Position numbers and translations under genes: made by a program. A stretch of 55,792 bases of DNA, the filler included, from Asterionella formosa (Eukaryota), in the NCBI GenBank assembly GCA_002256025.1. It is 4 parts of 4 records of this genome, joined end to end, with 100 filler letters (N's around TTAATTAATTAA, not from the genome) between each part and the next. Parts side by side here need not be neighbours in the genome. Positions count along the whole stretch, not along the records: positions 13,979 to 27,856 come from NKIB01006357.1; 3 more parts are not named here. One strand, 5' to 3'. The notes beneath the pieces are model-generated. The model did no database searches. It was not told where the DNA came from and saw nothing but the letters and a program-made list of their open reading frames with translations. Of the stretch, positions 7,404 through 53,135 are shown in pieces (position 1 is the first letter of the stretch; every line of letters begins with the position of its first letter).

Positions 7404-7706
7404 GGTGTCACTGTCCTTGAATCTGCACGATTGAACAGAGTGAAAAATCTAGATGTCACGATCCCAATAGATGGACAAAGCAAGTAACAGGGTACCACTG
7501 TAAATACCCATCATAAGGTGCTGTATTCTATCGATGCACAAAAGAAGGAGACCAATAGAAAATGGGCCGAGAGTGTCGGATATTGTATCTCCTCAAAATA
7601 TTGCACAGGCGCCGAGAAAACGGTACCAGGTACCAGGTACACCAAATTGGATGACCTGCTTTGGTCAAATAACGTTAAATGGCGCCTCGTCTAGCGCGCT
7701 TTAGCA

Positions 7707-23945: not shown

Positions 23946-24420
23946 TACCGGTACCGGTACTCTAACCCGGTATGTAATATGAATCCAATGCATGCAAAAA
24001 ATGTCATCGATCAGTACCTGGTCCAGGTACCAGGTACTGGTACATCTTGGTCCTTGTACCTGGTACCTGGCACAACCACAAGATGCTAACAGGTGCCAAT
24101 ACACAAATGATGCATACCTTCCTACACGTGGTATACGTTCCCTGACGTCACTGTCAGTCGCCGATGGCGGCATGCTATCTGGCGGCGAAGAAATCGATGA
24201 GCACCACCCACCATTTACGGACCAGTACCCTGGTACCTGGTGGCAGCTACCGGGTACTAGTACAAGCATTCTTTTGAACGAGTAACAGTACCTGGCACCT
24301 GGTCGTACCGAAAGAAGGTCCGGTACCTGGTACCAGGTACCAGGTACCATGTACACTAACGATGAAAAAAGGAATAAAAAATAGCTACCTGGGATGGTAC
24401 TGGTACCAGGTACCTGGTAC
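23946..24420. repeat. Cluster of self-complementary (GGTACCW)n / TACCGGTA motifs in a divergent intergenic region
   Basis: E.g. GGTACCT GGTACCA GGTACCA GGTACCA at 24322-24349, TACCGGTACCGGTAC at 23946-23960 and GGTACTGGTACCAGGTACCTGGTAC at 24396-24420. Confidence 0.85.
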
Positions 24421-24668
24421 TCGGAGTGACACACATCCACTGGTGTGTGTAGCCCAGCCAACAACAGTAACAGACCTATACGTTGACGTATCACTGATGT
24501 ATCCTGTATGTACTGAATGAGTCTCCACCACACTCAAATCAGAAATTGCTCATGACTCTGAATGAGCGAGCTGGAATCACACTGTTGCCATAACCCGCCA
24601 AAAAGTGATAGGATTGAGTTGCTAATAGAGTCTCCCCTTCAAATTATCTTCTTTATCGTTATACTGCT

Positions 24669-26750
24669 ATGAAGCTGGGAAAGTCGTCCCTACTGGTGAC
24701 TCTCTCGGGCATTCTGGCGACGGATACCCTTGCATTCGTCGCCAGATCAGCCAGAACATTTTCCTCGTTTTCCAGTTGTTCTGTTGCTTTCAAACCTCTT
24801 GCGGTCGACAAAGACTCCTCCTTGTATATGTCAGATGTGCAGGAACAAAGTAAAACGATTGATGAAGTTTCCGATGAACTTCGTCGCGTGAAGGAAGAGT
24901 TTGACGAGAAATTGGCCGCTACTACGACAGTAGTAGAAGCAGAAAACTTGCGTCGGGAATACATGAGCAAGAAAGGACCAGTCAATGATGCCATGGGTTT
25001 CATGCGATTGCTCTCCAATGAGGACAAGCCCAAACTTGGCGCTGTTGTTAATGCTATCAAGTCAGAAATGGAGAATGCCATTAACAGTCAAATGGAGGCT
25101 CTTGAGCTTTCCGAAATTGAATTGCAAATGGAGAAGGACCGTATTGATGTAACTCTGCCCGGATTGGGATATCCTGCGGATGTTGGACATCGTCATCCAT
25201 TAAGTATGACCATGGAAAAGGCTGTAGACATATTTACTGCACTAGGATATGACACTGTCACTGATTGCAATGATACTCCGGAAATCGAGACCGATTACTA
25301 TTGCTTCGAAGCCTTGAATTGTCCCAAAGACCACCCAGCCCGTGATATGCAAGATACATTCTACTTGTCGCAAGATATGGAGTTAATGCTTCGAACTCAC
25401 ACATCATCTGTTCAGATTCGCCAGTTAGAGAATCGCAAGCCTCCGCTTCGCGTCGTTGCTCCAGGGCGCGTTTATCGAAGGGATGACATAGATGCAACTC
25501 ACTCCCTCATGTTTCATCAAGTGGAGATTCTCGCCATTGAAAAGAAGGGAGAACTCACCTTGGGTCACTTAAAGGGCACAGTGGAACACTTTCTTAGGAA
25601 TATGTTTGGACCTAACATTAAGGTTCGATTCCGCGGATCTTACTTTCCTTTTACCGAACCCAGCATGGAGGTAGACGTCTTCTTCGGTGGAAGGTGGCTG
25701 GAAGTTTTGGGATGCGGTATGGTGGATCCTGCTGTCCTGACCATGGCAGGCGTTGACCCTGATGAATACTCGGGCTTCGCAGCTGGTTTCGGTGTGGAAC
25801 GTTTCGCCATGGTGATTCACGGAATATCTGATATTCGGGAGTTCTACAAGAACGATATTCGGTTCCTAGAACAATTTCCATTCTTTCATGACGATGGTAA
25901 GCATGTTTCGTTTTCCAATGGCGGTTGATAAATCCATCGATATTCTAATGAGTTATATTTTTGTTCCTTGCAGGTCTATACACTTTCTTGAATGGGATAC
26001 CTCCTAGTGAAGGACTTCAGGAAGATATGAATGGCAACTTCCCAATGGACTCACTAGAAATCAGCATGGATGAACAAATTGACCAAATTAACAACGCCCC
26101 TGTTGCAACGATAGTTGTACCCGAGGAAAATTCCCGACCGATGGCGGACAAGAAAACCACGGCACCTGCTGGAGAGATTGATGTGTCAAAGTTAGATATT
26201 CGCGTTGGTGTCATCAAAAGGGCATGGGAGCATGAAGAGGCTGATAAGCTCTTCTGCGAAGAAATTGATATTGGTGAAGCTGAGCCTAGACTTATTGCTT
26301 CTGGTCTTCGCGCGCACTACAAAGTCGAAGATCTTGAAGGCCAGCGCGTGCTCGTTCTTGCCAACTTGAAGTCTCGGAATCTAGTGGGATTTCCTTCGCA
26401 TGGAATGGTGATGTGTGCTGCCTCTGGTGACAATGTTGAATTCGTTGAGCCTCCTGTCGATGCTGGTAAGAGAGTCGTTTGGCTAGTCCCAGGCCCTTGG
26501 TGCGATCCCCTTTTTTTCTAACACCTCATCTAAATCTTGTGCAGTTATTGGTGAACGAGTGATGGTAGAAGGGTTTGATGGAGAGCCGGCAACTGAGAAT
26601 CAAATTATTAAAAGAAAGATGCTCGATGCCGTCTTCCCTGATCTCAAGACCAACGCTGCAGGTGTCGCTTGCTACAAAGGAGTTCCGCTGTCAACAAGTG
26701 CTGGCGTTTGCAAGGCCCAGAATGGAATGGCTGGTGCTAATGTTGCATAA
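24669..26750 (+). CDS. pheS: Plastid-targeted bacterial-type phenylalanine-tRNA ligase alpha subunit fused to a C-terminal EMAP II/Arc1p-type tRNA-binding domain, 3 exons
   Basis: Exons 24669-25896, 25974-26465, 26545-26750 (two phase-1 GTAAG...CAG introns). Presequence TLA|FVARS. N-terminal coiled coil LRREYMSKKG. Catalytic motifs GHRHPL, HPARDMQDTFY, LRTHTSSVQIR, GRVYRRD, FHQVE, FPFTEPS, WLEVLGCGMV, GFAAGFGVER. Then KLDIRVG...ADKLFCEEIDIGE...IASGL...LANLKSRNLVGFPSHGMVMCA. Confidence 0.9.
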
Positions 26751-26763
26751 ATAGGAAGATGCA

Positions 26764-27138
26764 TTACAAGAAAATGAGAGGGTCATCAGGATCTTCGGCT
26801 TCCTCCCCGAGTATACATTGTTCGTCGTTTTGGGAATTTTGATTGTTGGCTTGCTTGCTTATTGTCACGCTTAACCTGGATGAAGAGTTCGCCTTGGTGT
26901 GAGCCTCCCAAAGGGCAGATAGGGTATCATGTGGAACTGCACTGTCAACAATCCCATTCATGTTGATAGTAAAGCATTTGAGTGCTGAATCTAGCTCCTT
27001 CATTAGTAGAGCAATATTCGCATAGTCCCTTGCCAGCGCCTCCTCTCCCACCAGGTTGGTATTGTTGGTGTCGTCCTCAGCCGTTTCATCAAACTTGTCC
27101 CGCCCTCGGTTCACTTTAATCTCTTCATCCATCGTCAT
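26764..27138 (-). CDS. Small coiled-coil protein, possible DASH/Dam1 complex subunit Dad1-like
   Basis: 124-aa ORF with ATG start. Central helix IALLMKELDSALKCFTINMNGIVDSAVPHDTLSALW with acidic, disordered flanks. Family call is from remembered Dad1 spacing only. Confidence 0.5.
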   Translation of the reverse strand: MTMDEEIKVNRGRDKFDETAEDDTNNTNLVGEEALARDYANIALLMKELDSALKCFTINMNGIVDSAVPHDTLSALWEAHTKANSSSRLSVTISKQANNQNSQNDEQCILGEEAEDPDDPLIFL

Positions 27139-27856
27139 TATATTTATTGGGTGGTTGGCAGCCTTGGCTGAAGTCTTTATTTTATATTGCTCGATGGTTC
27201 GCCCATAACGACACGAAGATATGGAGAATGAAAAGTAGTGCCATTACGACCAGTACCTGGTACCGGTACCCTGGTACCAGGTAGCAGCGGGGAATCAAGC
27301 ACTGATCTTCCATTGGACTGGCATAAGAATCTTCCACATCAGCATGTGGTATGTGCGTACCTTTATATGTAATGTCGATCTCGTTCCTGTGGTCCTGGTA
27401 TGGTACCTGGTACCCTGGTACTCGGATTACCTGTGGTACCAGGTACCATGGCTGTTTGTATTATCCGCGTCATCTTAGCGCCGGGTCCCGGTGAACGTTT
27501 CCATGCTGGCTTCTGTGCATTATGGTCTACCACTGCACTACTAACTATGTAGCTAATTTGGTTATTGCTGGAGTACCATGTACTAGCTACCAGGATTCTA
27601 CACCAGCGGCCAATGAAGGTCGGCTAATCGAGAGATTTAGTCTTAATCTTTTCCAAAGTAAAAAGTGTTTTACCGGACCTTCCACAGGGGATCTCTGTGC
27701 GCGTGCGATGAGATATGATTTTGATATACTGTGCTAGTATTGACAATTAATTCTACCCCCAATACTACCATTTTTTGCCGTAGTGAAAGCTAGTGCACTA
27801 GTAGTTTACTAGCATGACATACAAAGCATGCACTGGAGTATGGTCTCGATCATTTT

Positions 27857-52259: not shown

Positions 52260-53135
52260 GTTTGGTTGGAGATCAATTCCGTCAACTGCTACTATACTCT
52301 GTTAAGTACCGGTCCTAATACGGCAATTCTGACAAACAAATGTTAACACTATTATGTGTACATCACAAAAGTATCTGTACACTTGTATATTTACTGGTAT
52401 GCTGTAAGTGCAGTACAACGAAACTCAAAATCACACTGATTGGAAGAACAACCGGCCGTACATTGAGAGTTTTACCTCTTCACTCTTGCTGTATGGACAT
52501 GTAAGATATGTACCGGTAGTTCGTGAATAGAATGGATGATACTATCATATCAATTACGTCCGATGCTGCTTGCTGTTCGAGTGCTATGATTGTACTCGCT
52601 CCTGAAAATCATTTTATATTTTGGTTGGCTTTGAGGGTGCACTGTCTGTACGACGCTCAATGAGCCCAACAGAATCCACCACTCCTAATCGACGCTTGAA
52701 GCTATCCCGGACATTAATTTGGATAACCGGGAGGGTTGACCTTTTCACTGTCCGTCGTGCGCAAAAATAACAATTGTTTTAATAATTTCTTGCAAAAGCA
52801 ACCACAGCATTCCGGTACTGTGGTATTGCCTACTTGGTACCTGGTACCTACTCCTACCATGGTACCGTGGTACCAGGTACCAGTATCGTTATCATTCACA
52901 TACCGGGTAGTAGTCATGGCACTATTTATTACATTCGGTATTGTTCACTCACTCTGCCCCTAAATAAATATGAAATCACCTTTCATCGGAAAGCACTTGT
53001 AAATATTATCACATACATGTGATTTCAAACGACCATATCATAGTCTACCAGAAGTCGGGTACCGGTAGTCCTGGTATACAATTTTCTCGACTCCGCTGCT
53101 GGCAGTTTAGTCCACCTCTTCTTCCCTCCACAATC

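Follow-up and report, generated by a model that had tools for sequence, protein, structure and literature searches.

Appended EMAPII domains are a textbook trait of cytosolic eukaryotic aminoacyl-tRNA synthetases and their cofactors. The domains of EMAPII, Arc1p, and Trbp111 bind the body of tRNA without sequence specificity and raise the efficiency of the synthetase to which they are attached or with which they associate. The same two-part domain is found in human AIMP1/p43 (4r3z and 1e7z), in yeast Arc1p (4r1j), and in the C-terminal domain of human TyrRS (1ntg), where it likewise forms the C-terminal end of a synthetase. Whereas these carriers are cytosolic and belong to the eukaryotic host lineage, the gene described here places such a domain on a bacterial-type subunit of a class II heterotetramer that is organellar by prediction. 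The gene lies at positions 24669–26750 on the plus strand of a 55,792-nucleotide stretch of DNA from the diatom Asterionella formosa (GenBank assembly GCA_002256025.1), in the part taken from NKIB01006357.1; we refer to the whole stretch, four parts joined with filler, as the window. It encodes the alpha subunit (PheS) of phenylalanyl-tRNA synthetase (PheRS) with an EMAPII-type domain at its C-terminus.

The closest described gene is pheRS3 of Phaeodactylum tricornutum (Phatr2 56835; PMC4494062), which is probably the orthologue of the window gene. As far as the available text of Gile 2015 (PMC4494062) goes, pheRS3 is likewise nuclear, it codes for an alpha subunit of prokaryote type predicted to be targeted to the plastid, its beta subunit is encoded by plastid syfB, and the prokaryote-type alpha subunit branches with cyanobacteria. 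In the same text, syfB is kept in about half of the 22 diatom plastid genomes then known. That diatom plastid genomes encode syfB, as the initial annotation of the window had stated, is documented in the available parts of both Gile 2015 and Ruck 2014. Thalassiosirales are reported to be without plastid syfB and T. pseudonana to have a monomeric plastid PheRS, and papers on diatom plastid genomes describe syfB as present, lost, reduced to a pseudogene, or highly variable. An appended domain on pheRS3 goes unmentioned in the main text of Gile 2015, supplements aside, where the strings 'EMAP' and 'tRNA-binding' each occur zero times. Full-text searches, which covered few subscription journals, returned no published description of an EMAPII-bearing PheRS alpha subunit or of plastid-directed EMAPII modules. 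In public databases the fused proteins are named plainly as alpha subunit, and the domain is visible only in precomputed Pfam columns.

One spliced mRNA encodes PheS and the EMAPII domain

As read from the sequence, the gene has three exons and two introns (Table 1). The spliced coding sequence of 1926 nt encodes a protein of 641 amino acids (aa) with a single, terminal stop, which begins with a predicted endoplasmic reticulum (ER)-type signal peptide. A complete PheS of bacterial type comes next, and an acidic linker of 68 aa joins it to a full EMAPII-type domain. Transcript evidence came from RNA contigs of four runs from four studies, one of which (run X6) is taken as RNA by guess, placed on positions 24400–27100. 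In each of the four runs one contig covers the whole coding region, from about 245xx to 268xx or beyond, with its start upstream of 24669, where the first in-frame ATG stands. The contigs of all four runs contain the joint 25896/25974 as well as the joint 26465/26545, each intron having GT..AG ends, and no contig containing intron 1 or intron 2 was found in any of them, with the limit that contigs drop rare forms. Since single contigs with both introns spliced out were recovered in four runs of four studies, PheRS alpha-EMAPII is one gene with one mRNA. The transcripts thereby bear out the initial annotation, which had read a complete PheS continuing in frame over two canonical introns and had proposed the junction 25896/25974, now found to be exact. 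Intron 1 sits exactly at the boundary between PheS and the linker. Reading unspliced into this intron meets a stop at 25926–25928, ten codons in (open reading frame (ORF) 24618–25928), so that the annotated stop is real.

Table 1. Features of the PheRS alpha-EMAPII gene in window coordinates
Feature	Positions	Strand	Evidence and remarks
5' untranslated region (UTR), minimum extent	24527..24668	+	RNA contigs start at 24527, 24570, 24600, and 24630 in 4 runs
Exon 1	24669-25896	+	sequence and RNA joints
Predicted ER-type signal peptide	24669..24734	+	aa 1-22, TLA end, F at +1, ASAFAP-like
Transit-peptide-like stretch	24735..24827	+	aa 23-53, S/T/R-rich, ends before Met 24828-24830
PheS N-terminal coiled-coil domain, PF02912	24933..25127	+	aa 89-153, E 1.5e-15
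PheS class II catalytic core, PF01409	25143..25877	+	aa 159-403, E 8.5e-95
Intron 1	25897-25973	+	77 nt, GT..AG, phase 1; joint in 4/4 RNA runs
Exon 2	25974-26465	+	sequence and RNA joints
Acidic linker	25974..26176	+	aa 410-477, 68 aa; 12 D/E, 3 K/R
EMAPII OB-fold part, PF01588 tRNA_bind	26177..26465	+	E 5e-23; PDB best AIMP1/EMAPII, E ~5e-22
Intron 2	26466-26544	+	79 nt, GT..AG; interrupts EMAPII domain; joint in 4/4 RNA runs
Exon 3	26545-26750	+	ends TAA
EMAPII C-terminal subdomain and TAA	26545..26750	+	human EMAPII residues 102-159, E 5e-8
3' UTR, minimum extent	26751..26892	+	run X1 contig stops at 26892

The PheS portion is of bacterial type

The match to PF01409 spans profile positions 2–246 of 246, and the NCBIfam pheS equivalog TIGR00468 scored 331 bits against a cut-off of 237, whereas the archaeal/eukaryotic model PRK04172 stayed under its cut-off (201 bits versus 350). 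Bacterial homologues stop at query residue 403–404. By these profile matches, together with the coiled-coil domain PF02912, the portion is a complete bacterial-type PheRS alpha subunit, in agreement with the initial annotation. A monomeric mitochondrial-type PheRS was rejected as a candidate: the match to pheS_mito (TIGR00469) was split into two partial stretches and scored 153 bits, below the cut-off of 258, and the C-terminal domain is EMAPII and not FDX-ACB.

In a FastTree phylogeny of 123 PheS cores, from which 29 of 152 candidates with fewer than 280 query positions (P0125 and P0208 among them) had been excluded, the 11 algal rows formed one clade with a support of 100. Within this clade, red-alga-like rows were placed on one side and Ectocarpus, Triparma, and diatoms on the other. 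The named neighbours of the clade were Silvanigrella, Sulfuritalea/Rhodocyclales, Enterococcus, and Binataceae, and no cyanobacterium was found among the nameable ones of 150 PheS representatives.

The appended domain is a full two-part EMAPII type

The PF01588 match covers residues 75–162 of exon 2 and profile positions 1–90 of 96, the last positions of the profile lying across intron 2. Exon 3 alone has no Pfam match; its residues 2–59 align with human EMAPII, and five of five PDB matches are EMAPII/AIMP1. An extra C-terminal lobe is what separates EMAPII from Trbp111. Since exon 3 alone matches residues 102–159 of human EMAPII, the appended domain is, by sequence comparison, of the full two-part EMAPII type. 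In the PDB ranking of the oligonucleotide-binding (OB) part, AIMP1/EMAPII (E 5e-22, 82 bits), Arc1p (8.5e-20, 75 bits), and the TyrRS C-domain (1.7e-18, 71 bits) stand above the Pyrococcus MetRS C-domain (63 bits), Trbp111 (8e-14, 55 bits), and YgjH (50 bits). This order, a ranking of scores and not a rooted tree, agrees with the eukaryote-type EMAPII domain that had been annotated, human and yeast proteins ranking above bacterial Trbp111. The linker is acidic, as annotated, with 12 acidic against 3 basic residues; across 88 fused homologues its length ranges from 35 to 96 aa (median 50.5), and it is probably flexible.

A homologous OB fold of the tRNA_bind family is present in the same holoenzyme, namely in the B2 domain of PheT, and exon 2 matched positions 45–122 of pheT_bact weakly (E 0.0064). 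In contrast to the appended domain, B2 is an internal domain of the beta subunit and has no EMAPII C-terminal lobe; the appended domain resembles eukaryotic EMAPII far more closely than it does B2.

The presequence points to the plastid

The N-terminus of the protein has a short basic start, a hydrophobic core, and the sequence TLA directly before F, followed by an S/T/R-rich stretch; the motif at the end of the signal peptide is MKLGKSSLLVTLSGILATDTLA, with the predicted cut before F. Diatom plastid presequences follow this pattern: they are bipartite and have an ASAFAP motif, in which a small residue precedes Phe at the cleavage site of the signal peptide. Among 103 non-redundant N-extended homologues, 84 passed a crude signal test, in accordance with the plastid presequence given in the initial annotation. 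From these features of the presequence we infer a plastid location of PheRS alpha-EMAPII.

A methionine, Met54 (24828–24830), stands at the start of the mature-looking part. In 85 of 106 N-extended homologues a Met is located 35–50 aa, mostly 39–43, upstream of RxEYxGKKGP. Met54 may be a relic of the ancestral start codon, may reflect a preference at the processing site, or may serve as an alternative start from which an untargeted form is made.

The fusion is lineage-wide and under-called in databases

PF01409, PF02912, and PF01588 occur together in 54 of the 120 best exon 1 homologues by our count, in proteins of 520–684 aa. Named carriers are Seminavis robusta, Fistulifera solaris, Mayamaea pseudoterrestris, Chaetoceros, and Cylindrotheca, and a second homologue listing added matches from Chaetoceros tenuissimus, Amphora, Eucampia, and Cylindrotheca closterium. 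Some of the fused entries are transcriptome-derived and marked complete. The fusion is thus lineage-wide and not particular to the genome of Asterionella formosa.

The remaining 66 of the 120 homologues are 350–517 aa long and without the tRNA_bind domain. The boundary motif QFPxF[YH]DDG is held by 150 collected proteins, 90 of which continue for at least 150 aa after it and 60 of which end within 1–109 aa. In each of the 60 short entries similarity is lost at the residue that follows the boundary Gly, which is K, T, M, A, or E, as expected from translation into a donor GTAAG, GTAYN, GTATG, or GTGNG. The short, seemingly unfused diatom PheS entries are therefore artefacts, prokaryote-style gene calls running into intron 1. 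Because all 60 diverge directly after the boundary Gly, the position of intron 1 is conserved. P0004 is the window gene's own false plain-PheS entry, and the entries P0004–P0013 are similar (350–517 aa).

Outside the diatoms, the complete fusion is found in Triparma verrucosa (Bolidophyceae), in a 626-aa protein with PF01588 at 470–564. The orthologues of Ectocarpus (450 aa) and of the red alga Timspurckia (397 aa, a complete transcript) end in a short tail only and are unfused, and three further algal representatives of 54–56% identity have short, mostly acidic tails. This distribution is most simply read as one gain, in an ancestor that diatoms and bolidophytes share. The 471-aa protein P0222, from JGI/Logan contigs of up to 290 kb, also joins PheS to a C-terminal tRNA_bind domain (PF01409, PF02912, and PF01588 at 376–468). 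It differs in being bacterial-looking, without presequence, with a short linker and a 96-aa Trbp111-type OB part that lacks the EMAPII lobe. These two families were here fused independently, so a tRNA_bind tail on PheS arose more than once.

The same module occurs on MetRS and as a free protein

The closest relatives of the module outside PheS are in diatom MetRS and in small stand-alone proteins. The window module is 67–82% identical (median 78%) to 71 other PheS modules, 73–76% identical to 12 MetRS modules, and 70–75% identical to 5 free modules. The diatom MetRS proteins P0166, P0171, P0175, and P0185 begin with a signal peptide ending in G or A before F and end in a full EMAPII module. 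They are of bacterial type (PRK12267, 782 and 768 bits, cut-off 598) and agree with the plastid/mitochondrial metRS2 described in Gile 2015. The OB part stands in MetRS where the bacterial enzyme has its native C-terminal domain, with the profile matched to position 647 of 648; the module thus replaces a native tRNA_bind domain there, whereas PheS has no native counterpart, and the PheS case is for this reason a true gain. As the OB part occupies a native position in MetRS, organellar MetRS is a plausible entry point of the module into plastid enzymes.

The free proteins P0187 (from Thalassiosira profunda), P0182, P0190, P0191, and P0143 are 287–329 aa long and contain tRNA_bind only, preceded by a signal peptide with A or G before F and a Lys-rich stretch. 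By their sequence features they could be a plastid tRNA-binding cofactor or the remnant of a fused gene. In a quick IQ-TREE analysis of 89 module domains (7 identical rows merged, no outgroup), 11 of 12 MetRS modules and 4 of 5 free modules each formed a clade of their own (SH-aLRT 95 for both), and the PheS modules lay around the free ones without resolution. By this pattern the modules are old, separately kept paralogues.

Neighbouring sequence and plastid contigs

Under the longest RNA contig, the 5' UTR contains an upstream ORF of 13 codons at 24553–24594, from ATG to TAA. On the minus strand, an ORF of 159 aa without Pfam match (26764–27243) lies tail-to-tail with the PheS gene. The contigs of two runs, X2 and X6, extend past the 3' UTR of PheS and across this ORF, up to the end of the stretch compared at 27100, and separate RNA contigs of low depth lie over 26958–27100. 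The 3' ends of the PheS gene and of the minus-strand ORF probably overlap or abut. A palindromic motif, GGTACCWGGTAC, occurs 28 times window-wide against 0 expected (100 shuffles), often as short heptamer runs (GGTACCW)n. Its sites, at 1562, 7622–7640, 16386, 22272, 24026–24420, 27253–27446, 31268, and 52836–52881, all lie between long ORFs, including either flank of the PheS gene; the motif could be an intergenic repeat particular to the species or an element of promoter regions.

The diatom rbcL barcode primer was found at 119 metagenome loci, several of them on plastid contigs of 60–167 kb, and at none in viral contigs. One locus, L120, is a 3.8-kb contig in a Bacteroidales metagenome-assembled genome (G001) and carries a diatom-type rbcL primer site. 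This genome has only its own bacterial pheT, and the contig probably comes from a plastid and was placed in this bin in error.

Discussion

We consider it likely that the window gene, in the nucleus, encodes the alpha subunit of a bacterial-type plastid (alpha-beta)2 PheRS and that its C-terminal EMAPII domain serves as a tethered, non-specific tRNA arm. The module would be one of a small family of plastid-directed EMAPII modules, of which the others are carried by organellar MetRS and by a free-standing protein. The signal peptide would lead the protein into the secretory route, cleavage would leave an N-terminal Phe, and the transit-peptide-like stretch would direct import into the plastid. 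There the alpha subunit would pair with the SyfB beta subunit, which is still plastid-encoded in many diatoms. The EMAPII domain, an OB fold with a C-terminal pseudo-dimer lobe on a variable tether of 35–96 aa, would bind tRNA non-specifically, keep it near the enzyme, and, by analogy with other members of the family, lower the apparent Km for tRNA-Phe. The variation in linker length, the intact PheS core and coiled-coil, and what is known of the EMAPII family argue for such an additive tRNA-capture arm.

Several points weigh against this interpretation. The binding of tRNA is deduced from family membership, and an arm in cis is not obviously needed, the coiled-coil with which PheS meets tRNA being intact; the red-algal and Ectocarpus enzymes manage without an EMAPII domain. 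SyfB as the beta partner is taken here from the literature, and targeting is judged by a crude test, namely a hydrophobic 10-mer together with [AGSC]F at residues 11–45. In the PheS tree the bacterial sister of the algal clade has a support of only 26, so that Gile 2015, in its available text, is the sole source for a cyanobacterial origin.

Two adjoining genes, or an assembly artefact, misread as one are ruled out by the single spliced contigs, for practical purposes entirely; fused proteins also occur in sources labelled mmetsp or eukprot, some marked complete, of which we take the MMETSP records to be transcriptome-derived, and as annotated genome proteins in at least six named species. Regulated isoforms, in which retention of intron 1 would give a plain PheS beside the fused form, had been proposed in the initial annotation and are unsupported by the RNA contigs. 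The stop ten codons into intron 1 and the conserved position of this intron exactly at the domain boundary would suit such a switch, but a stop soon after entry into a retained intron is to be expected by chance, the intron tails of the other entries vary from 1 to 109 aa without conserved sequence, and no contig with intron 1 was seen in any of the four runs, although a rare form could escape contigs. We regard this explanation as very unlikely.

Other readings concern what the domain is for. The initial annotation saw in it a possible compensation, by which a host EMAPII domain acquired by the nuclear alpha subunit would make up for a B2 domain lost or degraded in diatom SyfB. The homology of B2 with the appended domain, weak as the match is, fits this idea, as does the presence of the fusion in diatoms and Triparma, lineages reported, in the excerpts available, to keep plastid syfB. 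Ectocarpus has no fusion, and syfB is described as having disappeared from nearly all other plastid genomes that are red-derived, in a partial text that does not mention Ectocarpus; syfB is also given, in another such text, as a variation hotspot in Chaetoceros plastid genomes. PheT clusters without B2 do exist in bacteria (650–656 aa, no PF01588), and those returned by an Atlas search with bacterial PheT, in which clusters with PF01588 were excluded, were bacterial only. The idea is weakened because the same module is carried by organellar MetRS and by a free protein, which suggests a general tRNA helper and not a PheRS-specific repair, and because the alpha subunit of the red alga is unfused though rhodophyte plastids are reported, again in an excerpt, to retain syfB. 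We therefore hold compensation to be unlikely. B2 is said to make no contact with tRNA in the structure of Thermus PheRS with tRNA, which also counts against compensation. The module could instead act beyond aminoacylation, in a plastid synthetase complex, in sequestering or channelling tRNA in the manner of Arc1p, or on other RNA, with the PheRS alpha subunit as one carrier. Three carriers with plastid signals share the module at 70–76% identity, and the MetRS and free clades suggest paralogues kept apart for a long time. EMAPII-type domains are, however, monomeric tRNA binders, we found no evidence of any interaction, and nothing sets this proposal apart from a helper acting in cis. It appears to us quite improbable.

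A tethered tRNA arm on plastid PheRS thus remains our preferred interpretation. A wider and more tentative proposal, which we put forward as possible though doubtful, is that diatoms and bolidophytes have a host-derived Arc1p/EMAPII-like tRNA module in the plastid with three carriers, PheRS alpha, MetRS, and a free protein. If this is true, the plastid module system would correspond, within an organelle, to the EMAPII cofactor system of the cytosol, selection possibly came from poor tRNA binding by plastid-encoded partners such as a fast-evolving SyfB, and the free protein might be a remnant where syfB and the alpha subunit were lost, as in Thalassiosira.

Present in diatoms and Bolidophyceae and absent from Ectocarpus and a red alga, the fusion is a lineage-specific, dated marker, and surveys relying on gene calls truncated at intron 1 would under-count it. 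It raises the biochemical question of what an (alpha-beta)2 PheRS gains from a tRNA arm in cis. A long-fixed EMAPII domain on an organellar bacterial-type PheRS would be a case of host domains grafted onto endosymbiont enzymes after secondary endosymbiosis, and the module on organellar MetRS and on a free plastid-directed protein makes the same point.

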